Counted from the first letter of the stretch, positions 4,306 to 32,000 are shown. The stretch is 32,000 nucleotides of DNA from Geotalea daltonii FRC-32 (GCF_000022265.1 NC_011979.1:1950001-1982000), one strand, 5' to 3'. Numbers and translations are program-made. The notes: generated from the letters alone by a model not told the origin.

Positions 4306-4395
4306 GAAACCCCCTCTTCAATCATAATAGAAAAAGGGATGAGCAAATGTTGTACCGTGCTCATTAGGTGAGGGTCCTCCAGGATATGAAGACGC

Positions 4396-7344: not shown

Positions 7345-7510
7345 TGTTGTCGCCTCCATAACGCCAATAGCTCGCGCCACTCCATTACCTTAGGAGTATA
7401 TCCTTCGAATTAGAAAATAAACCATGGGAGTGGCAGGGATGCAAGGTGAAAATTGGAGGGAAGCAGCGGAGGCAAGTGGCCGACAGCATGCATTGGCAGG
7501 TATCAGAGGT

Positions 7511-7538
7511 AAAAAAAGCCCCGGTTTTCACCAAGGCT
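7511..7538 (-). terminator. Intrinsic terminator after the csp gene
   Basis: Minus strand reads AGCCUUGG-UGAAAA-CCGGGGCU followed by U7. Confidence 0.5.
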
Positions 7539-7563
7539 TATTAAGCATCCATTTGTTCGAGAA

Positions 7564-7764
7564 CTACATTCTGGTCACATTTGCCGCCTGGAGACCCTTG
7601 GGTCCTCTGGTTACGTCAAAGGTTACCTTATCGCCTTCGGTGAGAGATTTGAATCCATCACCCGTTATGGCAGAAAAATGGACGAACACATCCTCACCGT
7701 TCTCCTGCTCAAGAAAACCGAACCCCTTGCTGTCGTTAAACCATTTTACCGTGCCTTTTTCCAT
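7564..7764 (-). CDS. Cold-shock protein, CspA family
   Basis: 66 aa, [33 protein letters not shown], with RNP1 (KGFGF) and RNP2 (VFVHF) motifs. Confidence 0.95.
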
Positions 7765-7822
7765 TACTTTTTATCTCCTGGTTGATGTGATTTTATCCGG
7801 AGTATTTCCGGATATTGAAAAA

Positions 7823-9906: not shown

Positions 9907-10001
9907 CGGACAGGAACCCTGGCATACACCAGATACTTTCCAACCCCTCGCTCACTTAAGTCCGGCATCTCGGCTGCCTGCTTGCGTTATTCAAAGGCAA
10001 G

Positions 10002-10268
10002 TCAGATGAAAAAACCGCTCAGGCGTGTATGGAGATCAGTGTCGGTGCCGGCTTCCTTTGTTACCAGTGCTTTGCGTTCCCTGAGGGGCATCAGCTTGAT
10101 GAGGTGTTTCCGGGCACCGGCTTCATTGCCGGCTATGGCAGTTGCCATCGTGCAAAGGATCGGCAAGGGGAGTCCGTTACGGTATCCTTCGATGAGCTTG
10201 CCGATCTCTTCCCGCCGCTTTTCATCGGTCCATGATCTGTAAATATCGGCGCCTATATTTTCAATCAT
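10002..10268 (-). CDS. Small hypothetical protein co-transcribed with cheD
   Basis: 88-aa ORF starting 14 nt after the cheD stop, with AGGAAAGG upstream. No recognisable domain. Confidence 0.4.
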   Translation of the reverse strand: MIENIGADIYRSWTDEKRREEIGKLIEGYRNGLPLPILCTMATAIAGNEAGARKHLIKLMPLRERKALVTKEAGTDTDLHTRLSGFFI

Positions 10269-11043: not shown

Positions 11044-11940
11044 CTACTTCAGAAGCTGGATGATGTCCACGGCAGTCGGATTACCTGTCGTAACCGTTTG
11101 CAGAGAGGATGAATAGGGGAGGAAACCGCTCGCGTCAACATGGACACGATAGGTCCCGCTGGGGACGAAGGAGCTGAAGGGAACCCGGGGACCGCCGCTT
11201 GTGGCGTTGGCGAAAATGCTGCCGGCAGCGATGGCGGTGCTACTTGCCTGGGGAACGACGGAGACGGTAGCCGTCGACCAGTTGCCCAGGGTCGAGACGT
11301 AGCCGGTCAGTGAACCGAAGCTGTTGTAAACATCTCCTGACTGAACGATGCGGATGCCGGTGGGTTTGAGGACATACTTCTGATTGCTCTGGTTGCTACC
11401 GGTGATGACAATGGCGGTATTGGGGTCAAAATCGATGACGATGGCGTTGATGACTCCCGCCTTGACATCGACTTTCCCGATAATCTTCAGCCCCGACTGC
11501 TGACCGCTGGGAGTATCCAGGGGGATGGTCTGACCCGTTTTCAGCACGACATAGTTGGCCGCGTTCTGCCCCTCATTGGGTGCCAGGACAAGCCGGATCT
11601 GGTTATACTTCCCGGCCGGCAGAACGACCTCGCCCAGCGCTTCCTGCACAAAGCGCAGCGTCAGGATGTCGATCTTCCTGGGTGTTGTGAATGCGGCGAC
11701 GACGGGGAGTCGGGCATCGTCGTCCTTGGCATTTTCAAGGCCTGCCGGTACGACGCGGACTTCCTTGATTGTGATGAACACGTTGGCAAAAGCATCGCTC
11801 TGGGCATCGGTCAGCCCGACCTTGAGTGTGCCGGTGGGGGTGGAACTGCCGCCACCGCCACAACCTGGCAACTGCGAAACCGCCAGTGCCAGCAAAACCG
11901 CCAATGTCAATCCCCATAAACTTCTTACCTTCTTCAGCAT
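11044..11940 (-). CDS. DUF4382-domain lipoprotein with C-terminal beta-sandwich region
   Basis: Lipobox LPGC. TGTLKVGLTDAQ...ITIKEVRVV...LPAGKYNQIRLVL...PSGQQSGLKI...IDFD...YVLKPTGIRIV matches the DUF4382 pattern from memory. Confidence 0.7.
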   Translation of the reverse strand: MLKKVRSLWGLTLAVLLALAVSQLPGCGGGGSSTPTGTLKVGLTDAQSDAFANVFITIKEVRVVPAGLENAKDDDARLPVVAAFTTPRKIDILTLRFVQEALGEVVLPAGKYNQIRLVLAPNEGQNAANYVVLKTGQTIPLDTPSGQQSGLKIIGKVDVKAGVINAIVIDFDPNTAIVITGSNQSNQKYVLKPTGIRIVQSGDVYNSFGSLTGYVSTLGNWSTATVSVVPQASSTAIAAGSIFANATSGGPRVPFSSFVPSGTYRVHVDASGFLPYSSSLQTVTTGNPTAVDIIQLLK

Positions 11941-12344
11941 GACAACCTCCTAGCAGCGAATTTCCCCTTGTTCCCGGCCTTTCGGAAAAAGAAAAGCCGG
12001 GGCAGAAATATCGATGACATTTCGGCAACCCGGCTGTCTCAGAGAGACCCTTTAGGCTTTCCGCCCCATCCTCGCGGATGGTTGAGTATTATCGTCTACC
12101 ACCAGGGGTATTAATGTTGTCGACATTATGCATGGCGTCCAGTGAAAGTCAAGGCATTCGGAAAACGGGGGTTATTGCAGACGGTAGCGTATCGGATAGG
12201 ATTAATGTACAGGGTGCAGTCTGAACTTTTCCGTAGAGAAAACTCTATAAAAAAAGTAGAGTATGTAATAATTTTGTTGATCATTTTTATAGTAAATGTT
12301 TATATGTATTGAAGTTGTATTTAGCTTGAATGTGAGAGGCAATT

Positions 12345-13780: not shown

Positions 13781-13878
13781 TGGCGGAAGCACATGGGAAT
13801 CGAACCCACCAGGGAGATTTCTCATCCCCCTCACCGGTTTTGAAGACCGGGCCGCCCACCAGCGACGGTCGTGCTTCC
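13781..13878 (-). tRNA. selC: tRNA-Sec (anticodon UCA)
   Basis: Reverse complement is GGAAGCACGACCGUCGCUGGUGGGCGGCCCGGUCUUCAAAACCGGUGAGGGGGAUGAGAAAUCUCCCUGGUGGGUUCGAUUCCCAUGUGCUUCCGCCA. It has an 8-bp acceptor stem, a 5-bp T stem (8/5 Sec architecture), anticodon loop CUUCAAA, an 8-bp variable arm, discriminator G and an encoded CCA. It is close to E. coli selC. Confidence 0.95.
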
Positions 13879-20281: not shown

Positions 20282-21229
20282 GTGAGAATTATGGATGCCA
20301 TCAAGATCGACAACCTGACCAAACGCTTCGATGCCATGATTGCCGTTGATGGCCTGACACTCACCGTCTCCAGAGGGGAATTGTTCGGCCTGGTCGGTTC
20401 CGACGGGGCGGGGAAAACCACCACCATGCGCATGCTCGCCGGTATCATGGATCCAAGCTCTGGTGATGCATGGATCATGGACAGGCATGCGGGGCGGGAA
20501 GGTGAGTCCCTTAAAGGGAGCATTGGATACATGAGCCAGCGTTTCGGACTGTATCCCGACCTGACGGTGCTGGAAAACATCCATTTCTTCGCTGATATCC
20601 ACGGCTTGCCACAAAAGGGGCGGCAGGAAAAAATCGACCGGCTGCTGGCCTTCAGTAACCTCACCCCGTTCAAAAAACGTCGCGCCGGTAATCTTTCCGG
20701 GGGCATGAAGCAGAAGCTGGGGCTGGCATGCGCCCTGATCCATACGCCGCAGGTACTTTTCCTGGACGAGCCGACCAATGGCGTCGACCCGGTTTCGCGG
20801 CGCGATTTCTGGCGCATTCTTTACCAGCTGCTCAAGGATGGCGTGACCATCTTCGTCGCCACCGCTTATCTGGATGAGGCTGACCGGTGCAACAGGGTGG
20901 GGCTGATCCACAAGGGAAAGCTGGTCGCATGCGGCACTCCCCAGGAGTTGAAACAGCTGATGCCGGGGGGGATTCTTGAAGTGCACACCGGCAATGCTCG
21001 CGCCTGTTTGCAGATTCTGCACCGGAAGCTGGAGGGTTACCAGGTCGGACTGTTCGGCGATCGTCTGCACATTGTCAGCGAAACCCCGGAGAAGACGCAG
21101 CTCCTGGTGCAGGACCTGCTAGGGGGCGAGGGTGTCGAAATTGTCAGCATTCGGCAGATCGAACCGTCCCTGGAGGATATATTTATTTCCGTCATAGGGG
21201 AAGAGGACGTCCATGCCACAGCCGGATGA
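20282..21229 (+). CDS. ABC transporter ATP-binding protein (first of two)
   Basis: Walker A GSDGAGKTT, signature LSGGMKQKL, Walker B VLFLDEP. The start may instead be ATG 20291. Confidence 0.9.
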   Translation: MRIMDAIKIDNLTKRFDAMIAVDGLTLTVSRGELFGLVGSDGAGKTTTMRMLAGIMDPSSGDAWIMDRHAGREGESLKGSIGYMSQRFGLYPDLTVLENIHFFADIHGLPQKGRQEKIDRLLAFSNLTPFKKRRAGNLSGGMKQKLGLACALIHTPQVLFLDEPTNGVDPVSRRDFWRILYQLLKDGVTIFVATAYLDEADRCNRVGLIHKGKLVACGTPQELKQLMPGGILEVHTGNARACLQILHRKLEGYQVGLFGDRLHIVSETPEKTQLLVQDLLGGEGVEIVSIRQIEPSLEDIFISVIGEEDVHATAG

Positions 21230-22184
21230 ATATGCCGTGTCCCTGCGCAACCTGGAAAAGCGCTTCGGCGACTTTGCCGCCGTGGACAGGATCAGTCTCG
21301 ACGTGGGGAAGGGGGAGATCTTCGGCTTTCTGGGACCGAACGGCGCCGGTAAATCCACCACCATCCGTATGCTCTGCGGCATCTTGCCTCCCAGTGACGG
21401 ATCGGGAACCGTTGCCGGTTTCGACGTCATCAACGAGACCGAGTCCATCAAGAAGAACATCGGCTATATGAGCCAGCGGTTTTCCCTCTACGAAGACCTG
21501 ACAGTCGAGGAAAATATCGACTTCTACAGCGGCATTTACAGGATTGCGCCCGAAAAACGGCAGGTGCGCAAGGATTGGGTCATCAGGATGGCCGGGCTGG
21601 AATCCCACCGCAATTCCCCTGCTTCAGTCCTTTCCGGAGGCTGGAAGCAGCGGCTGGCACTTGGCTGTGCCATTCTCCATGAGCCCCCCATCGTCTTTCT
21701 CGACGAACCCACCTCCGGTGTGGACCCGGCAAGCCGCCGCAATTTTTGGGATCTCATCTATCGCATGGCCGGAGAAGGCACAACCGTCTTCGTCACCACC
21801 CATTACATGGACGAAGCTGAGTACTGCGACCGCCTGGGCCTCATCTATCGGGGCCAACTGATTGCACTGGGAACACCCGCCCAGCTGAAGACGGAGTTCA
21901 TGACGGAAGAGGTCATCGAGCTGAAATGCCATGGGGCACAGGAACTGATGGAGGAAGTGGAGGCTCTGGACGGGGTGAAACATGCCGCCCTTTACGGCAA
22001 CGGCCTGCATGTGGTGACCGTTGACGGGGAAAAGTCCATTTCAGCTATCAGTGCACTGCTTGCCGGGAAAGGGATTGCCGCCGACCGGCTGGAGAAGATC
22101 GTGCCCTCCCTGGAGGATGTGTTTGTTTCCCTGATCGAGATGCGGGACCGGCAGGAGTCTCCCCAGCGGGAGTTCAGCCGGTAA
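21213..22184 (+). CDS. ABC transporter ATP-binding protein (second of two)
   Basis: Walker A GPNGAGKST, signature LSGGWKQRL, Walker B IVFLDEP. It overlaps the upstream gene by 17 nt. Confidence 0.9.
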   Translation: MPQPDEYAVSLRNLEKRFGDFAAVDRISLDVGKGEIFGFLGPNGAGKSTTIRMLCGILPPSDGSGTVAGFDVINETESIKKNIGYMSQRFSLYEDLTVEENIDFYSGIYRIAPEKRQVRKDWVIRMAGLESHRNSPASVLSGGWKQRLALGCAILHEPPIVFLDEPTSGVDPASRRNFWDLIYRMAGEGTTVFVTTHYMDEAEYCDRLGLIYRGQLIALGTPAQLKTEFMTEEVIELKCHGAQELMEEVEALDGVKHAALYGNGLHVVTVDGEKSISAISALLAGKGIAADRLEKIVPSLEDVFVSLIEMRDRQESPQREFSR

Positions 22185-22255
22185 GATTGCTTGAGGCCTG
22201 GCCGGAGTAAGGGGCAAACACCGGCAACGTATGCAGCCTTAGCCCCTCCCCCTAA

Positions 22256-22278
22256 CCCCCTCCCATAAAGGGAGGGGG
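22256..22278 (+). other. C-rich/G-rich hairpin in the ATPase-permease intergenic region
   Basis: CCCCCTCCC-ATAAA-GGGAGGGGG, a perfect 9-bp stem. Confidence 0.6.
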
Positions 22279-22294
22279 GACGAAAGTATAAATC

Positions 22295-23428
22295 ATGAAG
22301 ATACAGCGCATCAAGGCCGTTGCCCGAAAAGAATTTCTCCATGTCTTCCGCGACTGGCGCAGTCTGGGTATGGGCATTGCCATACCCATGATCATGCTTT
22401 TTCTTTTCGGCTATGCCCTGACCCTGGATGTGGACCGGGTTCCACTTATCGTCTGGGACCAGAGCAATAGTCCTGCCAGCCGGGAATTTGTCAGTGGTTT
22501 TACCGGTTCGCACTTTTTTGCCCTGCAGGGCCATGCTGCCGGTTACCAGGAGATAGAACAGGCTATAGATGACCGCTCGGCGCTGATTGCCCTTGTTGTT
22601 CCCCGCGACTTCGCCCGTTCCATCGAAGCGGGAAAAACCGTGGCGGTGCAGGCCATACTTGACGGCAGCGATCCCAACACCGCCACCTTTGCCCTGGGTT
22701 ATGCCGAGGCCGTCACCGGCAGCTTCTCCCGCAAGGTGGTCCTGGAGAGACTCAACCGAATGGGGATGCCTCCGTCCCGTGCCGGGATAGACATAAGGCC
22801 GCGGGTTTGGTTCAACAGCGACATGGTCTCCAAGAACTACATTTTTCCCGGCCTCATCGCCATAGTCATGATGGTGATCGCCTCCCTGCTTACCTCACTG
22901 ACCATAGCCAGGGAATGGGAAAACGGTACCATGGAGCAGCTCCTGGCGACGCCGGTGACAGGTCCCGAGCTGATCCTGGGCAAACTTACGCCCTACTTTG
23001 CCATCGGCCTCCTTGACCTCATCCTCTGTGTCATCGTCGGCGAGTTCTTCTTTGCCATCCCGCTCCGGGGGAGCCTGGTGCTGCTTTTCGCACTGTCGCT
23101 TCTCTTCCTGCTGGGGGCTCTGGGGCTCGGCATGCTGATCAGCATCGTCACCAAGAGTCAGCTGGTCGCTTCCCAACTGGCCCTGGTGGCGACCATGCTC
23201 CCCGCCTTTCTTCTTTCGGGATTCATCTTCCCCATCGAGAACATGCCGGTCCCGATCCAATTCGTTACACGCCTGGTATCAGCCAGCTATTTCGTCGTGC
23301 TCATCAGGGGGATTTACCTGAAGGATGTGGGGCTGAACATTCTTGCGGTGGAAACCACTTTTCTTGCCGTCTTTTGCTTGGCGGTCATAGCCCTTTCGGT
23401 GGCGAGGCTGAAGAAGAAGATAGAATAA
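22295..23428 (+). CDS. ABC-2 type transporter permease
   Basis: 377 aa. One N-terminal TM, a large extracytoplasmic loop, then 5 C-terminal TMs, as in YbhS/YbhR-type permeases. Confidence 0.9.
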   Translation: MKIQRIKAVARKEFLHVFRDWRSLGMGIAIPMIMLFLFGYALTLDVDRVPLIVWDQSNSPASREFVSGFTGSHFFALQGHAAGYQEIEQAIDDRSALIALVVPRDFARSIEAGKTVAVQAILDGSDPNTATFALGYAEAVTGSFSRKVVLERLNRMGMPPSRAGIDIRPRVWFNSDMVSKNYIFPGLIAIVMMVIASLLTSLTIAREWENGTMEQLLATPVTGPELILGKLTPYFAIGLLDLILCVIVGEFFFAIPLRGSLVLLFALSLLFLLGALGLGMLISIVTKSQLVASQLALVATMLPAFLLSGFIFPIENMPVPIQFVTRLVSASYFVVLIRGIYLKDVGLNILAVETTFLAVFCLAVIALSVARLKKKIE

Positions 23429-23446
23429 GGAGTGAGGAGTGAGGCT

Positions 23447-23618
23447 GGCTGCTGTGACTTCGTCCGTTCGTTCGGTCGCCACAGCTGCGGACCTTGCGGT
23501 GTCAATTTATATCAACGAGCCGGTAAACGATTGCCGCGAATGCGCCTCTGTTGCATCATTGGGCGGGTGTCCGCTCGCCGCTGCGGCTCTGTCACTCTCT
23601 CCCGAAGCCACAGCAGCC
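23447..23618. repeat. Long-range inverted repeat bracketing a ~170-bp structured intergenic element
   Basis: GGCTGCTGTGACTTCG (23447-23462) against CGAAGCCACAGCAGCC (23603-23618), 15/16 complementary. Preceded by the tandem GGAGTGA GGAGTGA at 23429-23442. Confidence 0.45.
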
Positions 23619-23645
23619 TGACCGGCTGCGGTTAAAAATAATAGG

Positions 23646-24782
23646 ATGGGTATGCTGGAACGGCTCAAAGCCATGCTGATCAAAGAGTTCATCCAGGTGC
23701 TGCGGGATCGCCGCATGCGCTTCATCATCTTTGTGGTGCCGGCGGTGCAGACGATAGTTTTCGGCTATGCCGTAAATACCGATGTGAGGAATGTGGCGAC
23801 GGCCGTCTATGACCTGGACAACACCAGGGAGAGCCGGGAGCTGGTGGCCCGCTTCGTTTCCTCCGGATATTTCAATGTTAAGGAATACATAGCCCGCGAG
23901 AGCAGAGTGCGGGATCTGGTTGATCGTGGCAAAGCGAAGGCGGTGCTGCGCATCGACAGCGGCTTCGGCCGGACCCTTGGCGCCGGCAATACCGCTCCGG
24001 TGCAGCTGATACTCGATGGTACCGACTCCAACACGGCCGGTATCGTCTTAAGCCACGCGGTCAGGATTGCCGCCCGTTATAGTGAGGATCTACAGGCAGG
24101 ACAGCTGGCCAGGAGCAGCGGCCGCGTGCAGTCTCCTGGCGGCGTGCACCTTGAGAGCCGGGCCTGGTTTAACAGCAACCTGGAGAGCCGCAATTTTTAT
24201 GTGCCTGCGGTCATCACCAATATCGTCTTCATCATTACCATGCTTCTTTCCAGCATGGCCATCGTCCGGGAAAAGGAGATCGGCACCATTGAGCAGATCA
24301 TCGTCACCCCCATCAGGAAGACCGAGTTTATCCTCGGCAAAACAATTCCTTTTGTCATAATCGGTTTTATCGATGTGGGACTTATCTCGGCAGTTGGCGC
24401 CTACTGGTTTGATGTACCGATCAGGGGCAGTTTCACACTTCTCTTTGCTGCCACCGGGCTTTTTCTCATGAGCTCCCTCGGCATCGGGCTTCTCATCTCA
24501 ACTGTCAGCCGGACCCAGCAGCAGGCCATGATGAGCGCCTTTATGGTCATCTTTCCCGCAATGTTGCTGTCGGGTTTTGCCTTTCCCATCGAGAACATGC
24601 CCACCCCTGTCCAGTGGCTGACCTTGCTCAATCCGATCCGCTATTACCTGGTGATCATTCGCGGTATTTTTCTCAAAGGAACGGGCATGGATATCCTCTG
24701 GCCACAGCTTGCAGCCCTTGCTGTTCTCGGCCTGGTAATCCTTCTCTTTTCCGTGCGGCGCTTCCGCAAGACGCTCTCCTGA
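23646..24782 (+). CDS. ABC-2 type transporter permease (paralogue of the previous gene)
   Basis: 378 aa with the same topology and conserved blocks (GFAFPIENMPTPVQWLT compared with GFIFPIENMPVPIQFVT). Confidence 0.9.
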   Translation: MGMLERLKAMLIKEFIQVLRDRRMRFIIFVVPAVQTIVFGYAVNTDVRNVATAVYDLDNTRESRELVARFVSSGYFNVKEYIARESRVRDLVDRGKAKAVLRIDSGFGRTLGAGNTAPVQLILDGTDSNTAGIVLSHAVRIAARYSEDLQAGQLARSSGRVQSPGGVHLESRAWFNSNLESRNFYVPAVITNIVFIITMLLSSMAIVREKEIGTIEQIIVTPIRKTEFILGKTIPFVIIGFIDVGLISAVGAYWFDVPIRGSFTLLFAATGLFLMSSLGIGLLISTVSRTQQQAMMSAFMVIFPAMLLSGFAFPIENMPTPVQWLTLLNPIRYYLVIIRGIFLKGTGMDILWPQLAALAVLGLVILLFSVRRFRKTLS

Positions 24783-24986
24783 TTCGGCGGCTTACCCTTG
24801 CGCGGTCCTTGCGGATCAGGGCTTAGCTGAATCATCTCCAGATGGGTATGCACCCTCTCTTTGCTTCCATTCCACCAGACTGCTGTTCAAATAACTAATT
24901 TTCCACCATTCCCGTTGATTGAATAAATCTCCCGGCGTGGTACACTCCATTAATAATTATATTTTAATGTGTGGTTGGAGAAACCT

Positions 24987-26453
24987 ATGCCGCGACAGAG
25001 TCCCAGGATAAAAGCGATTCTTCCCGCAAAGCTCGACACCTCTTCATCAAAAATTGAGACAGAAATTATCGATCTTGGACTCGATGGTGCCTATCTCAAG
25101 GTTTTACCTCCTGCTTTCCGCGACAAGATCCCATTGAACACCAAGGTCCTGTTGCAGTACGACCTTTTTGGTCAGGGACTTTTCGAGCATCGGGGAAACA
25201 TTGTCAGAAAGGATGGCCTGGGCTACGGAGTGCAATTTGCCGGCATCGACCGCATGACAAAAAACAAGCTTTGGCAGCTCATTGCCGGAAATTTCGACAA
25301 CACGGGGAGCTGTCCCTTCTGCGGTGAAAGTTATGGCCTTCTGCCGCCGGTATGCAAAAGTTGCGGCTGGCAGCTGGATTTCAATCCCCCTGGTTATCTT
25401 GACTACCATGAAAGGACCTGTCTGCTGAACAGGGTAAACGGCAACCTTGCAAAATTCGATCTGGACCAGCTGCAAAAGGTCTCCGGTTTTATCGATACGG
25501 ATATCCTCAAGCTGAAAGGGAACGATGACCTTGACCAGTTTGTCGGCACCGGCAAGGCGATGCTGGATGTTTTTGCCAATATCCGCAAGGTGGCGCCCAC
25601 CGATCTCACGGTGTTGATTTTGGGCGAAAGCGGTACCGGCAAGGAACTCACCGCCCAGGCGATCCACGAAAGAAGCCCACGCAAGGACAAGCCGTTCGTG
25701 GCGATAAACTGTGCCGCAATCCCGGATAATCTCCTGGAAGCCGAGCTGTTTGGTCACGAAAAGGGTGCTTTCACCGGTGCACATACCACGAAGAAGGGAA
25801 AATTCGAATATGCCGACAACGGCACGATCTTTCTCGACGAGATAGGGGACATGCCTTCCAACCTCCAGGCCAAGCTGCTGCGCTTCCTGCAGGACAAGAT
25901 CGTGGAAAGGGTCGGCACCGTCGGCGGAAAAAAAGTGAACGTAAGGGTTATTGCCGCCACCAACAGGGATCTCAGCGTGGCCATTGCCGAAGGCAAATTC
26001 CGCAGCGACCTTTACTACCGCCTTGACGAATTCGCCATCAACCTGCCACCGGTACGGGAAAGGGGGGAGGATACCCTGATACTGGCTAAATATTTCCTGA
26101 ACAAGTTTTCCCGGGAGGGGGGGCTGGCGAAGACCTTTACCAAGGAAGCCATCGATGTCATCAATAATTACGACTGGCCGGGAAATGTCAGGGAGATAAT
26201 CAACAAGGTCAGACGGTCCATCGTCATGGCTACGGGCAGATATGTGACCCCGGCGGATCTGATGCTGGACGTGGCGAAGGTTGAGGACGGAGCAGGCAAC
26301 AGCGATCTGAGCAGTGCCGTGGCCGTTCTGGAGAAGGAGAAGATAAAAGAGGTGTTCAAAAGCTGCAACTACAACATCTCTACGGCTGCCAAGCTGCTGG
26401 GGGTGAGCCGCCCCACCCTCTATCGGCGGATGAAAATCTACGGCATAGAGTGA
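24987..26453 (+). CDS. Sigma-54-dependent transcriptional activator with N-terminal PilZ domain and CxxC-N12-CxxC zinc ribbon
   Basis: Start at ATG 24987 (GGAG 7 nt upstream). PilZ motifs RQSPR and DLGLDG. Zinc ribbon CPFCGESYGLLPPVCKSC. AAA+ Walker A GESGTGKE, GAFTGA loop and a C-terminal Fis-type HTH (AAKLLGVSRPTLYRRMK). Confidence 0.9.
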   Translation: MPRQSPRIKAILPAKLDTSSSKIETEIIDLGLDGAYLKVLPPAFRDKIPLNTKVLLQYDLFGQGLFEHRGNIVRKDGLGYGVQFAGIDRMTKNKLWQLIAGNFDNTGSCPFCGESYGLLPPVCKSCGWQLDFNPPGYLDYHERTCLLNRVNGNLAKFDLDQLQKVSGFIDTDILKLKGNDDLDQFVGTGKAMLDVFANIRKVAPTDLTVLILGESGTGKELTAQAIHERSPRKDKPFVAINCAAIPDNLLEAELFGHEKGAFTGAHTTKKGKFEYADNGTIFLDEIGDMPSNLQAKLLRFLQDKIVERVGTVGGKKVNVRVIAATNRDLSVAIAEGKFRSDLYYRLDEFAINLPPVRERGEDTLILAKYFLNKFSREGGLAKTFTKEAIDVINNYDWPGNVREIINKVRRSIVMATGRYVTPADLMLDVAKVEDGAGNSDLSSAVAVLEKEKIKEVFKSCNYNISTAAKLLGVSRPTLYRRMKIYGIE

Positions 26454-26555
26454 GATGTAACAAGGAGAAAGGACGGCCAGGTGTATCAGAATTTTACAGA
26501 TTCACTGCTCCGTTGGATGTCCAAGTTGCTGAAAAATAAAGAACCACCGATGACC

Positions 26556-26585
26556 GTAACACCTGCTTAACAGATGTCAGGTTAC
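26556..26585. promoter_or_regulatory. Candidate upstream activator sequence (imperfect inverted repeat)
   Basis: GTAACACCTG-N12-CAGGTTAC lies ~110-135 bp upstream of the -24/-12 promoter. Further TGTAAC/GTTACA half-sites occur at 26456 and 26672. Confidence 0.3.
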
Positions 26586-26692
26586 ACATTTTTAACAATC
26601 TTTACAGAAATGGTTGCCACAGGAACCTGAACTGGAAGCAAAAAATAATAAAGATGTAGGAATAGCAGTGGGTTACAAATAAAGATGAGAGG

Positions 26693-26707
26693 TGGCACAT
26701 CAATTGC
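26693..26707 (+). promoter_or_regulatory. Sigma-54 (-24/-12) promoter
   Basis: TGGCAC-ATCAA-TTGC is an exact match to the TGGCAC-N5-TTGC consensus, ~60 nt upstream of the 26771 ATG and downstream of a sigma-54 activator gene. Confidence 0.75.
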
Positions 26708-26770
26708 CATAAGAGAAATAAGAGCAACGGCAGAGCGCCTTGCCAAAATCTAATTCTAGGAGGATATGTT

Positions 26771-27781
26771 ATGAAAAAGGGAAAAATGATCGTGACGATG
26801 GCTGTGGTCTCTGCCTTGGGGTTTGGCGGGCAGGCATTGGCAAATGATGAACTCGAAGTGGACGTGGATATCACCAAGACAGTGGAAGTGAACAAGAATT
26901 CCAACAATACGCTAGAGGTTGATGCCAGCAAAAACATTGAAGTCAAAAAAGAAGTCGAGGTAAATAAAACAATTGATTCAAATAACACCAAGGAGATTGA
27001 AGTTAATAAGACCGTAGAAGTAAAGAAAGCTGAAGGCGAAGCTGAAGGTAAAGGCAATGCAGTAGCCGTCAACGGCTCCACTTCTGACGTGACCGACAAT
27101 TCAAAAAAGCTTGAAGTCGGTGACGTCAACATAGACAAATCTACCGACAATTCAAAGAATCTTTCTGTCGGAGATGTGGACATCGATAAATCAAGCAAGG
27201 AAGTAGAGATTGAGAAAACTGAAAACGAAGCCCAGTACGGAAGCGTTGCAGCCATAGGGGGGAATGCTACGAAGGAGGAAGTGGACGGCGACATAGACAA
27301 TCTGTCAGGCGGCGCCGTGGCAGCTACCACCGGCGGCACTGCTTCCATGACAGACAGCTTCAACACTGACTCCAGCATCAACGCCACCGCCGAAGAGGGT
27401 GCCATTGCCGTCAATGCCGCAGGCGACGCTGACATCAGCACAACCGAGGAATCTTACAACAACCATGCCGAGGATCACAGTGCAGCTGCCTATAATGGCG
27501 ACGCCTACGCCCAGGAAAACTTCAACAATACCACCAACAGCAACAACCAGACCACCACCCTGACCGTCGGTGATGTGGATGTTGAAATCGCCTCCAGCGT
27601 TCTTAACGGTACAGTATCGAGCAACGTTGCCCCGACCGACGCAGAGGATGTGCCTCTGACCGGATACAATGAAATCAACGATTCCCTGGAATCTCCGAGT
27701 GGCATCACCGTCCTTTCACAGAACACCGGCTTCAGCTCACTGGTACAGCAGTCGGTCAATGTTCAGGTTAACAGGCCGTAA
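26771..27781 (+). CDS. Secreted repetitive protein (Cys- and Trp-free, N/D/E/K/T/V-rich), candidate major subunit
   Basis: AGGAGG RBS and signal peptide MKKGKMIVTMAVVSALGFGGQALA. Short xEVxK periodicity, a 17-aa tandem repeat, G/A/N-rich segments (GAIAVNAAGDA) and the C-terminal motif SGITVLSQNTGFSSLVQQSVNVQV. Confidence 0.8.
   Translation: MKKGKMIVTMAVVSALGFGGQALANDELEVDVDITKTVEVNKNSNNTLEVDASKNIEVKKEVEVNKTIDSNNTKEIEVNKTVEVKKAEGEAEGKGNAVAVNGSTSDVTDNSKKLEVGDVNIDKSTDNSKNLSVGDVDIDKSSKEVEIEKTENEAQYGSVAAIGGNATKEEVDGDIDNLSGGAVAATTGGTASMTDSFNTDSSINATAEEGAIAVNAAGDADISTTEESYNNHAEDHSAAAYNGDAYAQENFNNTTNSNNQTTTLTVGDVDVEIASSVLNGTVSSNVAPTDAEDVPLTGYNEINDSLESPSGITVLSQNTGFSSLVQQSVNVQVNRP
27092..27193 (+). 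repeat. Two imperfect tandem 51-nt repeats inside the secreted-protein gene
   Basis: TDNSKKLEVGDVNIDKS / TDNSKNLSVGDVDIDKS, about 73% nucleotide identity by eye. Confidence 0.8.
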
Positions 27782-27796
27782 GTGCAAATCACATGT

Positions 27797-27836
27797 TCAC
27801 CCCGGTGATGCATACGCGTCACCGGGTGCTTTTTTG
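27797..27836 (+). terminator. Intrinsic terminator/attenuator after the first secreted-protein gene
   Basis: CACCCCGGTGA-N10-TCACCGGGTG (one bulge) followed by CT6. Confidence 0.7.
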
Positions 27837-27876
27837 CCGAATTTAAATTTAGCTGCACCCATAAGGAGGCAGGAAA

Positions 27877-28278
27877 ATGCGAAGATCGACAAAAGCCCTG
27901 TTTGCCCTACTGGCTTTGTCTGCTGCCACCATCTCGGCTCAAGGGGCTTCGGCCAATGGAATCGGCCCAGGATCAGCCGGGGAGATGGTGACTACGGCCG
28001 ACCTGGAACTGGGGCAGTCATTAACCAACGAAAATCTGGATGACTTGACCGGACGGCAGAACATGAACGTGGACCAGCTCGACATGCAGCTAAACACTGC
28101 AACGCAATTGGGTGAGGCAGATGGTAACCTTATTAATGATTCGAACCTCACCACCGGCGCCAACGGCATCAGCGGCAACGCCTTTGCCCAGGCGAGCGGC
28201 CTGGTGACGGTGATCCAGAACTCTGGCAACCAGGTCCTGATTCAGAACGACCTGATCATGAATCTGACGGTGAAATGA
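27877..28278 (+). CDS. Small secreted protein sharing the C-terminal QN(S/T)G motif
   Basis: GGAGG RBS, signal peptide MRRSTKALFALLALSAATISAQG, and C-terminus SGLVTVIQNSGNQVLIQNDLIMNLTV. Confidence 0.75.
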   Translation: MRRSTKALFALLALSAATISAQGASANGIGPGSAGEMVTTADLELGQSLTNENLDDLTGRQNMNVDQLDMQLNTATQLGEADGNLINDSNLTTGANGISGNAFAQASGLVTVIQNSGNQVLIQNDLIMNLTVK

Positions 28279-28982
28279 AGCGTATGAAGCATTCCATATT
28301 ACCCGTTGCCTTTTTTGCATTGCTACCCATTCTTTTTGTGATATCGCCGGTCGAGGCGGGTACCATAGTGGTCCCCGGCGTGACCGGCGGTGCTTTTACC
28401 GTGAAGGTGACGAGTATAAAAGAAGCGCGTTTCCGTACCACGGTCCACCAGCAGTACGACTTCAGCTGTGGATCGGCGGCGCTGGCAACGCTGTTGACCT
28501 ATAATTACGAAGAGCCCGTTACGGAACAGGAAGTATTCAAGGCCATGTTCGACAAGGGGAATAAGGAGAAGATCCGTAGGGAAGGCTTTTCATTGCTGGA
28601 TATGAAGAATTACCTGGAGGAGAATGGCTACAAAGCTGCCGGGTACAAGGTAACCCTCGACCGGCTGTCGCAGATCGGCGTGCCGGCCATTGTGCTGATC
28701 AACATCAGGGGGTACAAACATTTTGTGGTGGTCAAGGGGGTTTCGGCAAAGTCGGTACTGGTCTCGGACCCGGCCGTTGGGGCCAAGACCATTCCCCGGG
28801 CCGAGTTTGAATCCACCTGGAACGGACTGATTTTCATCATATTGAACAAGAAAAATGTAGCTAAAAATTACTTCAACCGCGATCGAGAATGGCATGTCAA
28901 GGAGAAAGCGCCACTGGGCTTGGCCTTGAGCCCCAGCGAGCTTGCCAGCGTGACCTTGATGCTGCCGGGAGTATTGCGATGA
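28275..28982 (+). CDS. Signal-peptide-bearing (periplasmic) C39-family cysteine peptidase-like protein
   Basis: ATGA overlap with the upstream gene and an N-terminal signal peptide. QQYDFSCGSAALATLL (Gln plus catalytic Cys, TGT at 28467-28469) and YKHFVVVKG...VSDPAVG (His and Asp) match the C39 catalytic pattern. Confidence 0.85.
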   Translation: MKRMKHSILPVAFFALLPILFVISPVEAGTIVVPGVTGGAFTVKVTSIKEARFRTTVHQQYDFSCGSAALATLLTYNYEEPVTEQEVFKAMFDKGNKEKIRREGFSLLDMKNYLEENGYKAAGYKVTLDRLSQIGVPAIVLINIRGYKHFVVVKGVSAKSVLVSDPAVGAKTIPRAEFESTWNGLIFIILNKKNVAKNYFNRDREWHVKEKAPLGLALSPSELASVTLMLPGVLR

Positions 28983-29485
28983 CGCCAAAGGGGAAAGACC
29001 ATATGTGGAAAATCGCCCTATTGTTGGCAATAGTGATGTCTGCAACCAGTACGGCTTATGGGGATTGGGCGGAATGCAGGGACTGCAGCTCCCTTGCTGC
29101 CCAGGACCTTGAGCTGATCCGCGGTGGCTACCAGACCGGAGACGGCCTGGAGGTTTCTTTCGGCATCGAAAAGGCTGTGTTTATTAACGGCATACTGCAG
29201 GCTACCAGTACCTTGAACGTCCCGCTGCTGGGTGGCGAGTCGAGTCAGGCCCTGTCGGGCAACGTTCTGGCCGACAGGGCCATGACGATCCAGAAGGGCG
29301 CCGGCAATTCCATCGATATGGCCGGTGGTCGGGAGGGACTGTTTACCTTCATCCAAAACAGCCTCGATTTTGCCGCGATCAAGAACGTTACCCGCATAGA
29401 TGCCACGGTTAATGTCCTCAATACTTATCGCAACATGAATCTGAGGTCTTTGATCAACGAACAGCTGATCAATGCAATGAAATAA
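28979..29485 (+). CDS. Secreted protein with CxxC, double-glycine-leader-like motif and the shared C-terminal motif
   Basis: ATGA overlap with the C39 gene (alternative start ATG 29003). Signal peptide WKIALLLAIVMSATSTAYG, then AECRDCSSLAAQDLELIRGG. C-terminal region GLFTFIQNSLDFAAIKNVTRIDATVNV. Confidence 0.7.
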   Translation: MTPKGKDHMWKIALLLAIVMSATSTAYGDWAECRDCSSLAAQDLELIRGGYQTGDGLEVSFGIEKAVFINGILQATSTLNVPLLGGESSQALSGNVLADRAMTIQKGAGNSIDMAGGREGLFTFIQNSLDFAAIKNVTRIDATVNVLNTYRNMNLRSLINEQLINAMK

Positions 29486-29512
29486 AACATATCTGCCATG
29501 ACGGCTCATATG

Positions 29513-29555
29513 AAAAGCCGCCAATCCCAGTTTTTGGGGCTGGCGGCTTTTTTTT
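29513..29555. terminator. Bidirectional intrinsic terminator between the secreted-protein operon and the convergent barrel gene
   Basis: AAAAGCCGCCAATCCCA-GTTTT-TGGGGCTGGCGGCTTTTTTTT, with A-run and T-run flanks serving both strands. Confidence 0.8.
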
Positions 29556-29648
29556 CGGACAATGGACAGCCCCGGCTGCCGCGATTCGGCAATTTCATAG
29601 TAGTGAGCATGGGGTGCTTCCTTCCAGGAGGGAAAAGTACCGGACGAT

Positions 29649-30854
29649 CTACTTTCCCGTGAGCAGGAAACTGGTGGGAAGCCTCAAGGTCAACTGCACA
29701 TTGGAGGCGGCCGGCGTCAGTCCTGCGCCTATGGAGAAATTGGCCGATGTTTTTTCGGTCAACTTGTAGGAAAAGCCGAAGAGAAGGCTCCCCACCTGGG
29801 TGATGATCGAGCCGGGAATTTCGGTGCCGTCGATCTTCGGCTTGCCCAGGACGATATGGTCGTAGCCGATGCTGAAGGAGGATTTTTCGTTGAGTGCCAC
29901 ACCGATACCGAAGTTGAAGCCGATGGTGTCCCCCGGGTCCATTCTGCCTTGGCCCGGGACCTTTCTCGCCATATTCCACATGTAGCTCACGGTGCCGAAA
30001 AATACTGCCGGGTCGGAAGAAAAGATGGCGCTGATCCCCGGTTGGATGCCCCAGAAGCCCGACCCCGTGGGAAGTTCCGTCTGCAACGGTACCCCCGATG
30101 GGCTGGTCACGTTGGTCGCGGTGGGAACCTCGAAGGGATCCTTGCCGGTGATGGATTTTACCCGCAGGTTGGCGATGAAATAGGGACCGTTTCCCCCCGG
30201 CTGGTTAAGCTGAAAACGGGGACCGAATTCGACGTCACCCATATTGTTCCCGTCGGCGGTGAACACACTTGCCGGTATCCGGTTGCCCGTATTGGGATCG
30301 GTAGTCGGTTCGAACGAGGTGGAATCGGAACGGTAGACGTAGGGGACCCTGGCTTCGAATTCTACCCGGTTGGTGATGCCGTAGCGTGCTCCCAGGGAGA
30401 CGACGTAGGTATTGCTGTTGACGTTCCGCACATCGATGAGCCCGATGGTGAAGGAGGGAATGATAGTATAGCCGCTCAGTGCCACACGGTTGGAGGAGGA
30501 ATTGGAGAACTGGAATGATGGCTCCAGGACCAGCGTTCCCTTGGGGGTCAGTACCCCCGGTTGATCGAAGATCGGAGCTATATCCGGCGTCCGCGCTTCT
30601 CCAGGCTGCCCAACCGGCGGCTCATGAATATGCGTCCTAGTTGCCTCGGTGCGCATTTCTTTTTTCGCCTCGTCTGCTTTGGCAGTTGCCTTCTTTTCAT
30701 TTCCTTTTTTGGTGGAGGTGATTTCCCGGTCCTGTTCCGGCGGCCGGTTTTTTCCTTTGCCGGGGGGGGGAGACTCTGCGCAAAACGAATTTGCAGACAG
30801 CAACATCAAAGCCACCCAGACGCAGGCGGTAATGGTTTTTCCACGAGCAGGCAT
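29649..30854 (-). CDS. Outer-membrane beta-barrel protein with charged low-complexity N-terminal extension
   Basis: Signal peptide, then an ~80-aa K/E/P-rich segment (KKGNEKKATAKADEAKKEMRTEA...PPVGQPGEARTP). After that come alternating amphipathic strands (LGARYGITNRVEFEARVPYVY, FGFSYKL, NVQLTLRLP). It resembles 'transporter'/MetA-phenol-degradation-type barrels from memory. GGAGGA RBS. Confidence 0.75.
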   Translation of the reverse strand: MPARGKTITACVWVALMLLSANSFCAESPPPGKGKNRPPEQDREITSTKKGNEKKATAKADEAKKEMRTEATRTHIHEPPVGQPGEARTPDIAPIFDQPGVLTPKGTLVLEPSFQFSNSSSNRVALSGYTIIPSFTIGLIDVRNVNSNTYVVSLGARYGITNRVEFEARVPYVYRSDSTSFEPTTDPNTGNRIPASVFTADGNNMGDVEFGPRFQLNQPGGNGPYFIANLRVKSITGKDPFEVPTATNVTSPSGVPLQTELPTGSGFWGIQPGISAIFSSDPAVFFGTVSYMWNMARKVPGQGRMDPGDTIGFNFGIGVALNEKSSFSIGYDHIVLGKPKIDGTEIPGSIITQVGSLLFGFSYKLTEKTSANFSIGAGLTPAASNVQLTLRLPTSFLLTGK

Positions 30855-31121: not shown

Positions 31122-32000
31122 GTGAACGGTATAAAAACGATTATCTGGTTGTATATCCTCATTACATTCGCTGTTTTCTCGGCCGTTCCCGACATTCATG
31201 CCGCCACACCTTCCGCAACACCAATAGCAGACGTCACCCAAAACGAGGCTGATATCATCAACCTTGACGTGGCAGGCTCTTTCAGCGATGGGGATGGCCA
31301 CACGCTTACTTTCACCGCCACCGGCCTGCCCGAAGGCATTGGCATCAGCTCTGCCGGGCTTATTTCGGGAAAGCTGCCGAAGGTGACGGCGAATACCTCC
31401 TATAGGGTGACGGTGACCGCCACAGACCTGAGTAATCTTACTGCCGACCAGAGTTTCACCCTGACGGTCATCAACAGCATTAACGAGCTTCCTGTCCTGG
31501 CCCGCAATACCGTGCTCAGAATCAACCAGGATGCCGCTGCCGGTACCATCGGTAATAACTATTTGCAGCTTACGGATGAAAACAATCCCGGTGCCAGCTC
31601 CCTGACCTACACCCTGACCGCCGTGCCGGTCAAAGGGACCCTGCAAAAAGGGAACTCACCCCTCGCTGTCGGCGCCACCATTACCCAGGCGGACATCGAC
31701 GCCGGTTCCATCAGCTTCGCTCCTTCGGGGAGCGCCAACGGCGCCGACGGTTTTTCCTTTACCTACACGGACGACGTCGGGGAAACACAGGGTCCAGCGG
31801 TTTTCACCATCACCATCGTCGATAATATACCGCCGACCATGAACGGCACTGCCGTGTATGTGGACTCGACCCATGTGGAGGTGACCTTCAGCGAGGAGGT
31901 TAAAGGCGCGGATCTCCCGGCCAATTACACGGCAGACAACGGCCTGACCATAACCGGAGCGACGCCGGTTAGCGCGAATACCTATCGTCTCACCACCTCA
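31122..32000 (+). CDS. Large surface protein/adhesin with Ig-like (dystroglycan/cadherin-type) repeats, 5' part (open at the window end)
   Basis: GTG start with GGAGGGGG RBS, open for 293 codons to the window end. Signal peptide MNGIKTIIWLYILITFAVFSAVPDIHA. FSDGDGHTLTFTATGLPEGIGISSAGLISGK...YRVTVTATD is typical of putative-Ig/cadherin-like domains. Next comes a domain with the pattern LTYTLTAVPVKGTL...ITQADIDAGSISFAP...FSFTYTD. Confidence 0.8.
   Translation, partial: MNGIKTIIWLYILITFAVFSAVPDIHAATPSATPIADVTQNEADIINLDVAGSFSDGDGHTLTFTATGLPEGIGISSAGLISGKLPKVTANTSYRVTVTATDLSNLTADQSFTLTVINSINELPVLARNTVLRINQDAAAGTIGNNYLQLTDENNPGASSLTYTLTAVPVKGTLQKGNSPLAVGATITQADIDAGSISFAPSGSANGADGFSFTYTDDVGETQGPAVFTITIVDNIPPTMNGTAVYVDSTHVEVTFSEEVKGADLPANYTADNGLTITGATPVSANTYRLTTS

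Follow-up and report, generated by a model that had tools for sequence, protein, structure and literature searches.

A probable Fap-type secretion module with its own cargo families in Geotalea daltonii

Is the six-gene cluster found in a 32 kb stretch of Geotalea daltonii FRC-32 DNA (hereafter the window; coordinates count from its first letter) a Fap operon that has diverged, or a secretion system of its own? The cluster consists of a gene for a sigma-54 enhancer-binding protein (EBP), four genes on the same strand that we call g1 to g4, and a gene for an outer-membrane beta-barrel that converges on them; every open reading frame (ORF) of this layout was present as described in the initial annotation, which had left a choice between a Fap-like system that has diverged and a fibre/matrix secretion module not described before. 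Fap is one of only two well-studied Gram-negative amyloid export systems. Both halves of the proposed alternative found support, with homologues of FapD and FapF on one side and unnamed cargo families on the other. We favour, with a probability of about 0.6, a Fap-type module that secretes extracellular matrix proteins in two steps; it would be a sister to the Pseudomonas Fap system and carry cargo families of its own.

Peptidase g3 and the barrel are homologues of FapD and FapF

The g3 protein falls into the Pfam family Peptidase_C39 (E 3e-25). Its best NCBIfam match is FapD (E 3.3e-51, 173.7 bits for an equivalog cut-off of 330), followed by FilB of Acinetobacter (NF050078; E 2.4e-36, 125.5 bits, cut-off 475), and the nearest solved structure is the double-glycine-motif protease domain 6mpz (E 1.4e-10). 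The intact Gln/Cys/His/Asp set announced in the initial annotation could be located residue by residue: Gln59/60, Cys65 and His149 by a pattern search and Asp165 by reading the sequence. g3 stands alone, with a signal-peptide-like N-terminus and no fused ATP-binding cassette (ABC) exporter, and at the family level it has the features of a FapD-type periplasmic C39 peptidase with a catalytic Cys. In Fap, secretion needs this Cys (Rouse et al. 2017, PMC5557850), and published Fap work names no substrate for FapD (PMC5557850).

The barrel protein aligned over its whole barrel part (residues 90-394) with the crystallised FapF sequence (PDB 5o67; E 1.1e-30, 110 bits) and matched the NCBIfam FapF model with an E-value of 2.4e-42 and 145 bits (equivalog cut-off 700). 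A match to Pfam PF13557, a family that the initial annotation had proposed to search, was also present and weaker than the FapF match (E 8.4e-8, 33 bits, gathering score 22), as was one to NCBIfam FilC (NF050079; E 7e-8, 32.2 bits, cut-off 630). The protein carries a conserved pre-barrel segment, PDIAPIFDQPGVLTP, and a PTG motif (LPTGSGFW), and is 98% identical to the barrel of Geotalea toluenoxydans JCM 15764. We also considered a lipoprotein, which was ruled out, NSFC not being a lipobox. Because both proteins score below the NCBIfam equivalog cut-offs, they are family-level homologues outside the equivalog range, g3 of FapD and the barrel of FapF; a FapF-type outer-membrane transporter is thus present as a matter of family-level homology, not of equivalog membership.

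The five-gene set is conserved across Proteobacteria and Desulfuromonadota

We then looked at the neighbourhood of related barrels in other genomes. The survey was made with a four-sequence barrel alignment and two patterns on the pre-barrel segment; since the patterns target that segment, it is biased to close relatives, and Cupriavidus is over-represented. The gene set of a large variable protein, a small protein, a C39 peptidase, a g4-like protein and a barrel was found in about 50 further loci. g2, peptidase, g4 and barrel are present in nearly all of them, most exceptions being truncated contigs, and g1 was recognised in most, by similarity or by its C-terminal motif. Among the Desulfuromonadota the module occurs in Geotalea sp., Geomesophilobacter, Geobacter and metagenome-assembled genomes labelled 'Deltaproteobacteria'; among the Betaproteobacteria in Sulfuricella, Duganella/Pseudoduganella/Massilia, Variovorax, many Cupriavidus, Burkholderia and Ralstonia; among the Gammaproteobacteria in Rhodanobacter, Lysobacteraceae, Photobacterium and, as a partly degraded copy, on a Vibrio plasmid; and among the Alphaproteobacteria in Polymorphobacter and Croceicoccus. 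The peptidase, the barrel and the motif-bearing proteins thus co-occur in four classes or phyla, which is the outcome that the initial annotation had expected of a genuine module.

The opposite-strand position of the barrel gene had been listed as a difference from Fap. This holds in Geotalea but not as a general trait, the barrel gene being co-directional in Cupriavidus and in Alphaproteobacteria; the convergent orientation is lineage-specific. A barrel of the same subfamily (E 1e-69), with a coiled coil, was also found in Indioceanicola profundi (locus L011, 7521-8873) with neither a C39 peptidase nor g2 nor g4 up to 8 kb away, which makes it an orphan barrel or part of a split locus.

Part of this distribution may have been glimpsed before. 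Table S1 of PMC3792158 credits Cupriavidus basilensis and Burkholderia terrae, which have a canonical fap operon, with an 'extra FapD and FapF'; the accession numbers differ by two, pointing to a single intervening gene. Co-localised fapD/fapF homologues have been noted in five further phyla (PMC6173800). The extra pair of C. basilensis suggests that a canonical fap operon and the module can occur together in one genome, although the pair's identity with the module is unconfirmed. In the collection of papers that was searched in full text, no description of the cargo families came up.

The secreted proteins form families of their own

Each of the five proteins g1 to g4 and barrel begins with a basic stretch followed by a hydrophobic one, a signal-peptide-like N-terminus as read from the sequence. 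Cys is absent from g1 and g2, and g4 has two, both upstream of the RGG motif described below. g1 is acidic and rich in N, V, S, T, E and D; the initial annotation was right in calling it Cys-free with a Sec signal, but 'repeat-rich' holds only modestly, for one 17-aa unit present twice and short EV(x)K-type patterns.

Profile searches with Pfam and Fap models, as the initial annotation had advised, matched the machinery to FapD and FapF and left the cargo unplaced. g1, g2 and g4 had no meaningful match in Pfam or NCBIfam scans, and none to NCBIfam FapB, FapC or FapE even at E<=10; the same held for these three models with the Cupriavidus counterparts. We rebuilt the published hidden Markov model (HMM) of the FapB/C repeat from the supplement of Dueholm et al. 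2013 (PMC3792158) and used as positive controls FapB, FapC and FapE of Aeromonas caviae, from a locus found by tblastn. The repeat HMM gave 116.5 bits for the control FapC and 86.2 bits for FapB, and the NCBIfam models recognised FapB, FapC and FapE at E 8e-22, 1e-50 and 2e-12; FapD and FapF of Aeromonas scored 249 and 371 bits on the models used for g3 and the barrel. The 39-residue Fap repeat, in which G16, N21, G25 and N32 are effectively fixed, was found in none of g1, g2 and g4. The g1 segment GAIAVNAAGDA, likened to Fap repeats in the initial annotation, reached -1.4 bits on the published repeat HMM, and the likeness is dropped. As for FapA, the operon has no further ORF, and apart from FapD and FapF the five proteins match none of the Fap models in NCBIfam, a FapA model among them being unconfirmed; fapA is often missing from accepted Fap systems (PMC3792158).

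The families are large. The g4 profile collected 1,609 representative clusters at E<=1e-3 among 1.84 billion proteins and the g2 profile at least 1,529, with no Pfam domain and only generic names among the matches listed. Family labels for g2 and g4 are 'hypothetical' or generic ('periplasmic protein', 'putative exported protein'), and RefSeq names the module genes 'hypothetical protein', 'C39 family peptidase' and 'transporter'.

The initial annotation had seen one C-terminal motif in the three secreted proteins, and profile comparison bears this out. The C-terminal modules of g1 and g2 align with a probability of 92.9% in hhalign (E 3.8e-7, 40 columns), and the g4-family HMM matches g2 proteins at E 1e-9 to 1e-3 among about ten thousand decoy ORFs, meaning that g2 and g4 are paralogues. 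The module reads ..AFsNAsGlpTVIQNsGnNVLIQNAtIlNV.. in g2 (window copy AFAQASGLVTVIQNSGNQVLIQN), ..AGImi.nQNSG..SLVQQSVNVQaN.. in g1, where it is conserved across phyla, and FIQNSLD..IKNVT in g4. Those of g1 and g2 are strongly kept from Geotalea to Cupriavidus. The body of g1 is highly variable, with N/T/D repeats in locus L003 and a Gly-rich composition in Cupriavidus, and the C-terminal module alone is conserved. Compared with the Fap-repeat profile, the g1 module gave no alignment (3%), and the cargo module would be at most a very divergent single Fap-like repeat.

One cargo protein points towards Fap more directly. The g4 family aligns with the Aeromonas FapE family at 95.4% in hhalign (E 2e-8) over only 29 N-terminal columns, ..vsD.eLd.mRGGf....GL..SFGIE in g4 facing ..elaDgELahLRGRYvs..Gi.yFGIE in FapE. 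NCBIfam FapE was matched by 6 of the 58 g4 relatives and is the sole family matched by more than one member; conversely, the best non-family ORF for the g4-family HMM was Aeromonas FapE (E 0.2). The window g4 itself had no NCBIfam FapE match, and its BLASTP comparison with Aeromonas FapE was not significant, so that the relationship is visible to profile methods only. tblastn of Aeromonas FapE against plasmids returned the self-match alone, and the comparison rests on Aeromonas FapE, as all named homologues recovered were from Aeromonas. On this evidence g4 appears to be a distant FapE relative.

g4 and g2 carry a double-glycine-type motif

Leaders of the double-glycine type, cut by C39 peptidases, end in Gly-Gly and have hydrophobic residues at positions -4, -7 and -12; that of colicin V ends in ..LNELDSVSGG. 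We scanned 155 g4-family sequences with the pattern [RKTQ]-G-x followed by an FGIE-like motif, in which the glycine at -2 is fixed by the pattern and the next residue is free. The pattern matched 118 of the 155. In these 118, Gly at -1, Arg at -3 and Leu at -7 were each found in 117; position -6 is D or E in 101, -4 is V, M, I or L in 103 and -12 is V, L, I or M in 111, -11 is mostly S or A, and F/L-G is frequent at -19/-18. In the window g4 the motif SSLAAQDLELIRGG/Y (the slash marks the putative cleavage point) lies about 23 residues past the predicted signal-peptide cleavage site and reads L(-12) A A Q D L(-7) E L I(-4) R G G. g4 thus has the Gly-Gly at -2/-1 and the hydrophobic -4/-7/-12 of C39 processing. 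Proteobacterial g2 proteins have a corresponding motif, ..FG..A.AV...KLDDVRGG/AE... A D(L/E)LE(L/V) motif near the mature N-terminus had been reported for all three secreted proteins; it stands in g2 and g4, as part of this longer motif, but is not conserved in g1 homologues, and the leader motif is absent from g1. AlphaFold2 models of low confidence place a short helix directly before G-G or G-R, at residues 41-48 of g4 and 51-57 of g2. The arrangement is not that of an ABC-fused peptidase acting on an extreme N-terminal leader without a Sec signal, signal-peptide-like N-termini preceding the motif in both g2 and g4.

The near-invariance of RGG together with the hydrophobic -4, -7 and -12 leads us to predict that g4 and g2 are peptidase substrates, which g3 would cleave at the double-glycine-type motif. 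Of the Fap proteins, FapE alone lacks its N-terminal ~70 residues in vivo (Rouse et al. 2017, PMC5557850). Tentatively, and at somewhat less than even odds, we extend this to a wider scheme in which the motif marks the substrates of periplasmic FapD-type peptidases and removal of the propeptide in the periplasm licenses ATP-independent export through FapF-type barrels. Canonical Fap, the widespread sister system (over 1,500 protein clusters) and possibly Fil would have such a distinct peptidase-gated outer-membrane pathway in common, with a cyclic di-GMP (c-di-GMP) input interchangeable between VpsR and PilZ. It may extend to the Fil system of Acinetobacter baumannii: in locus L009 (5509-6348) the N-terminus of FilA is a signal peptide followed by MQSMDDAALSAATGQ/DGINIGI, which is leader-like by eye.

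A sigma-54 promoter, an adjacent activator and two terminators

Looking upstream of g1, the consensus -24/-12 promoter reported in the initial annotation is there: TGGCAC-N5-TTGC at 26693-26707 is the sole exact match in the 32 kb window. Most related loci have such an element ahead of g1: the Geotalea loci an identical one, L026 and L027 an exact one, and Cupriavidus TGGCAC-N5-ATGC. Direct repeats (repeat pair D2, Table 1) lie about 100-135 nt upstream of the -24 element and are largely kept in two other Geotalea genomes.

The EBP has the domain order PilZ, CxxC..CxxC segment, AAA+ with GAFTGA, and HTH_8, with Pfam matches to PilZ (1.1e-9, 38.9 bits, cut-off 22.5), Sigma54_activat (8.2e-72), AAA_lid_14 and HTH_8. 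The RxxxR motif of PilZ is present as RQSPR, and the domain may bind c-di-GMP. The four-Cys segment CPFCGESYGLLPPVCKSCGW (residues ~115-134, ~25311-25370), kept in Geotalea sp. SG265, is probably a zinc ribbon. A PEP-CTERM regulator was rejected as an identity for the EBP, the match spanning AAA+ and HTH only and lying below the cut-off.

Every Desulfuromonadota locus has an EBP gene next to the module, and so do several Betaproteobacteria and Photobacterium. The adjacent EBPs carry the VpsR domain PF20161, except in Geotalea, and in Geotalea only is it replaced by PilZ. The canonical fapBCDEF locus of Aeromonas caviae (L008, 709-8023) also has an EBP with a VpsR domain, and TGGCAT-N5-TTGCT stands just before fapB; an insertion-sequence-type transposase gene lies between activator and fapB in this locus. 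No mention of sigma-54 control of fap was found in the Fap literature examined. Since the Aeromonas fap locus has both a VpsR-domain EBP and a -24/-12-type element, control by sigma-54 and an EBP seems ancestral to both systems, and PilZ would be a lineage-specific sensor swap in Geotalea, which fits a c-di-GMP input and is not proof of one. Of the dedicated PilZ-EBP that had been given as a difference from Fap, the Geotalea-specific PilZ domain therefore remains, and the sigma-54 activator does not distinguish the module from all Fap systems.

The hairpin and T-tract noted 3' of g1 fold at -23 kcal/mol (z -5.5), followed by U6, and the hairpin between g4 and the barrel gene folds on either strand, at -27.1 kcal/mol (+) and -25.8 (-) with z-scores of -5.3 and -6.2; the barrel gene thus converges on the operon and shares its bidirectional terminator, as had been proposed. 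A hairpin plus T-run after g1, with a different stem sequence, also occurs in L003, L005, L015 and L017 (with the window, five Desulfuromonadota lineages), and this conservation of position supports attenuation and a high relative expression of g1. An Rfam scan revealed no riboswitch or known RNA within the module; a sub-threshold match to BcKCsr2 was discarded, being the terminator itself. Outside the module the scan gave two gathering-level matches, a tRNA-Sec gene at 13785-13878 (-) with 77.4 bits and a c-di-GMP-I riboswitch at 12021-12097 (-) with 41.4 bits, upstream of an ORF at 11044-11940 (-); c-di-GMP signalling therefore operates elsewhere in the same genome stretch.

Proposed mechanism and its alternatives

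The reading of the cluster as a Fap-type module stands on firm observations: the peptidase and barrel are homologues of FapD and FapF, the five-gene module recurs across lineages, and promoter, terminators and conserved motifs are all present. The events that we propose are the following. The PilZ-AAA+ activator, presumably in its c-di-GMP-bound form, would drive sigma-54 RNA polymerase from the promoter at 26693. g1 would be made in excess, because the terminator behind it would let only part of the transcript continue into g2-g3-g4. All products would cross the inner membrane by the Sec pathway. In the periplasm, g3 would recognise the motif after the signal peptide (..DLELIRGG/Y in g4, ..NLDDLTGR/Q in g2) and remove a short propeptide. 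The FapF-like plugged barrel could then export g1, g2 and g4 unfolded, probably recognising them through the common N/Q-rich C-terminal module. Outside the cell g2 and g4, in the manner of FapB and FapE, would be minor subunits for nucleation or anchoring, and g1 would be the major, sequence-variable surface or fibre component. Both export through the barrel and assembly into a fibre or amyloid are predictions of this scheme.

Several observations weigh against it. The N-terminal trimeric coiled coil of FapF is critical for secretion in Pseudomonas (PMC5557850); a coiled-coil heptad segment is present in the barrels of Cupriavidus, Alphaproteobacteria and Aeromonas, and it is absent from those of the window, L003 and L005, which have a Pro/Lys/Thr-rich linker instead (alignment A2). 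The second PilZ motif of the EBP is DLGLDG, not DxSxxG, Ser being replaced by Gly. In the Desulfuromonadota G-R replaces G-G in g2, the window protein having NLDDLTGR/Q; Aeromonas FapE likewise has LRGR/Y, with arginine for the second glycine, so that cleavage there is less certain, and in long-form relatives of g4 the motif can stand as far as ~200-600 residues into the protein, in contrast to classical leaders. On the FapBC-repeat HMM g1, g2 and g4 scored -3.1, 3.7 and -0.3 bits. The g2 module gives a weak, in-register match of 25 columns to the Fap-repeat profile (hhalign 23.5%, E 8.6e-4). There is one conserved module per subunit, not three stacking repeats, and AlphaFold2 revealed no fold for g4 (58-sequence alignment; predicted local distance difference test score, pLDDT, 60; predicted template modelling score, pTM, 0.32) and a disordered monomer for g2 (79 sequences; pLDDT 52, pTM 0.18). 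A three-rung amyloid core of the FapC type is not evident from these sequences, and any assembly would be intermolecular. Because of this single module and the lack of an evident FapC-like core, we place only moderate weight on the word fibre, and the single module is also the reason why a cargo that does not polymerise is kept as the main rival.

According to that rival, the peptidase and barrel export something other than fibres, g2 or g4 being a secreted, processed peptide (bacteriocin, microcin-like toxin or signal, for example), or g1 a monomeric adhesin or disordered surface coat. Double-glycine leaders and C39 peptidases are indeed classic for the export of bacteriocins and peptide pheromones, disorder is predicted for the g2 and g4 monomers, g1 differs very strongly between species in its body (Gly-rich in Cupriavidus, N/T/D-rich in Geobacteraceae), and in Desulfuromonadota a giant Ig/cadherin-like adhesin adjoins the module. 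We nevertheless hold it to be rather improbable: the module comes without an immunity gene or an ABC transporter, an N/Q-rich module with alternating hydrophobics (TVIQN-SGNQ-VLIQN) in three proteins suits the stacking of beta-strands, a terminator after the first gene is typical for a major structural subunit and sigma-54 with VpsR/PilZ control for matrix genes, and the nearest characterised relatives, FapD, FapF and FapE, build fibres. The cargo could, on the other hand, be that of Fap itself, diverged past easy recognition in an orthologous fapBCDEF operon without fapA, with g1 as FapC, g2 as FapB and g4 as FapE. Besides the homology of g3 and the barrel to FapD and FapF, the match of the g4 and FapE N-terminal motifs, the register of the g2 C-terminus with the first 25 Fap-repeat columns, the gene order in Cupriavidus (large subunit, small subunit, D, E, F), which is like that of fap, and the frequent loss of fapA in accepted Fap systems (PMC3792158) all speak for such orthology. 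It is unlikely all the same. Models of the Fap repeat and of FapB, FapC and FapE fail on the window proteins and pass on the Aeromonas controls; g2 has Ile for the fixed N21 and Val for the strongly preferred N28 of the repeat HMM; g3 and the barrel reach 173.7 of 330 and 145 of 700 bits, compared with 249 and 371 for canonical Aeromonas; and if the extra FapD/FapF of C. basilensis and B. terrae are the module, which is unconfirmed, the two systems coexist as paralogues.

Very improbable, finally, is a barrel that serves as a COG4313/PF13557 channel for the uptake of hydrophobic compounds, with a function unrelated to the convergent operon. The PF13557 match lies above its cut-off (33 vs 22 bits) and the barrel gene is on the opposite strand in the window. 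That match cannot tell uptake from export, because FapF belongs to the same superfamily (PMC6173800), and the FapF match is far stronger (110 bits for the crystallised sequence, 145 for NCBIfam). The barrel adjoins the peptidase, g2 and g4 in nearly every locus, co-directionally in most proteobacteria, and its synteny with the peptidase argues for export; C39 peptidases beside COG4313 channels are not reported (PMC6173800).

Gene layout and neighbouring genes

The features of the cluster are collected in Table 1. Genes g2 to g4 are chained as the initial annotation had described, with 4-nt ATGA overlaps at both the g2/g3 and the g3/g4 junction.

Table 1. Positions of the module features in the window, with the basis of each assignment.
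Feature	Position	Strand	Basis or remark
sigma-54 EBP gene	24969..26453	+	ORF; ATG of the initial annotation at 24987
Candidate activator-binding direct repeats GTAACACCTGCTTAACA / GTTACACATTTTTAACA	26556..26597	+	putative function
sigma-54 -24/-12 promoter TGGCACATCAATTGC	26693..26707	+	exact TGGCAC-N5-TTGC
g1, 336 aa, presumed major subunit	26771..27781	+	ORF; C-terminal module encoded ~27659-27778
Intrinsic terminator/attenuator 3' of g1	27801..27835	+	fold + U6
g2, 133 aa, secreted	27877..28278	+	ORF; G59 codon ~28051-28053
g3, C39 cysteine peptidase, 235 aa	28275..28982	+	ORF; Pfam, NCBIfam
g4, 168 aa, secreted, FapE-like	28979..29485	+	ORF from the ATG overlapping the g3 stop; RGG = residues 48-50, nt 29120-29128
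Bidirectional terminator g4/barrel	29512..29556	both	folds on either strand
FapF-like outer-membrane beta-barrel, 401 aa	29649..30854	-	ORF; Pfam, NCBIfam, PDB sequence matches

Immediately upstream of the EBP gene, at 21213-24782 (+), translations indicate an ABC ATPase gene and two ABC-2-type permease-like genes. On the other side, divergent from the barrel gene, a gene for a 1,506-aa Ig/cadherin-like adhesin starts in the window (31122-32000, +) and continues in locus L001 (4957-10804); its domains are He_PIG, Cadherin_3, Big_13 and Glucodextran_B, and a 434-aa protein without Pfam match comes after it. In each of the seven Desulfuromonadota loci that were compared (L001, L003, L014-L018) the module is flanked by an adhesin homologue, and a homologue of the 434-aa protein was found in every one but L016. 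In L003 both genes are on the same strand as the EBP and barrel genes. The adhesin and the 434-aa protein may belong to the same matrix locus as the module. In G. toluenoxydans JCM 15764 (L014) the adhesin is broken into four ORFs (3404-7777) and g4 (9515-10018) scores 92 bits, compared with 175 in the window; a frameshifted 137-aa form of g4 (P0005) exists as a protein entry under an NCBI source. The split adhesin and the low-scoring or frameshifted g4 are probably assembly or frameshift artefacts.

Comparison with known systems and significance

With the Fap system of Pseudomonas and Aeromonas (FapF structures 5O65/5O67) the module has in common a stand-alone periplasmic C39 peptidase homologous to FapD, a FapF-homologous barrel with a whole-barrel match and the PTG motif, a FapE-like g4 with the motif L..L.RG[GR][FY]....G...FGIE, three Sec-dependent cargo proteins each with an N/Q-rich C-terminal motif, a small subunit coming after a large variable one and, as at the A. 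caviae fap locus, a sigma-54-type promoter with a VpsR-domain activator. It differs in a cargo without 39-residue repeats, with one C-terminal module in place of three repeats, in having no FapA, in the barrel without N-terminal coiled coil of Desulfuromonadota and Vibrionaceae and, in Geotalea, in the convergent barrel gene and the PilZ sensor of the activator. The 'putative pilus system' Fil of A. baumannii (FilA-F) likewise has a C39 peptidase and a FapF-related barrel, beside a Gly/Ala/Asn-rich FilA with, by eye, an N-terminal ..L....TGQ motif. The matches to Fil are far weaker than those to Fap (125 bits for FilB at a cut-off of 475, 32 for FilC at one of 630), the window has no relatives of FilA, FilD, FilE or FilF, and Fil itself has an additional FadL-like barrel and the large FilE and FilF.

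The peptidase fold and catalytic residues, with 6mpz as nearest structure, and the g4/g2 motif (Gly-Gly at -2/-1, hydrophobic -4/-7/-12, acidic -6) also recall the double-glycine leaders of class II bacteriocins, colicin V and competence peptides and their peptidase-containing ABC transporters (PCAT) or ABC-transporter maturation and secretion (AMS) proteins. Unlike the cytoplasmic exporter domain of those systems, g3 is a periplasmic enzyme that stands free and brings its signal peptide itself; a Sec signal stands ahead of the motif in g2 and g4, some relatives have very long pro-regions, and export is proposed across the outer membrane only, via the barrel and without ATP. With curli (CsgA/B and CsgG) the module would share a major and a nucleator subunit, unfolded export through a dedicated channel and Q/N-rich motifs, these likenesses being predicted on the module side; curli has no homologous component, no peptidase, a different channel type and a different regulation.

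FapD/FapF pairs outside Fap had been noticed earlier. New here are the definition of the cargo families, the size and distribution of the module family and the conserved processing motif. Two large unannotated families, g2 and g4, gain a genomic context, and the 'extra FapD/FapF' and co-localised fapD/fapF of earlier surveys (PMC3792158, PMC6173800) may be explained by the module. The question of what FapD cleaves, open since 2017 (PMC5557850), becomes testable through a near-invariant site in two of three cargo proteins, and Cupriavidus metallidurans CH34, which carries the module too, may suit genetics better. Taken together, these results present the FapD/FapF pair as a general secretion platform with at least two unrelated-looking cargo sets, and make the module a candidate c-di-GMP/sigma-54-controlled component of the biofilm matrix in Geobacteraceae, beside a giant adhesin.

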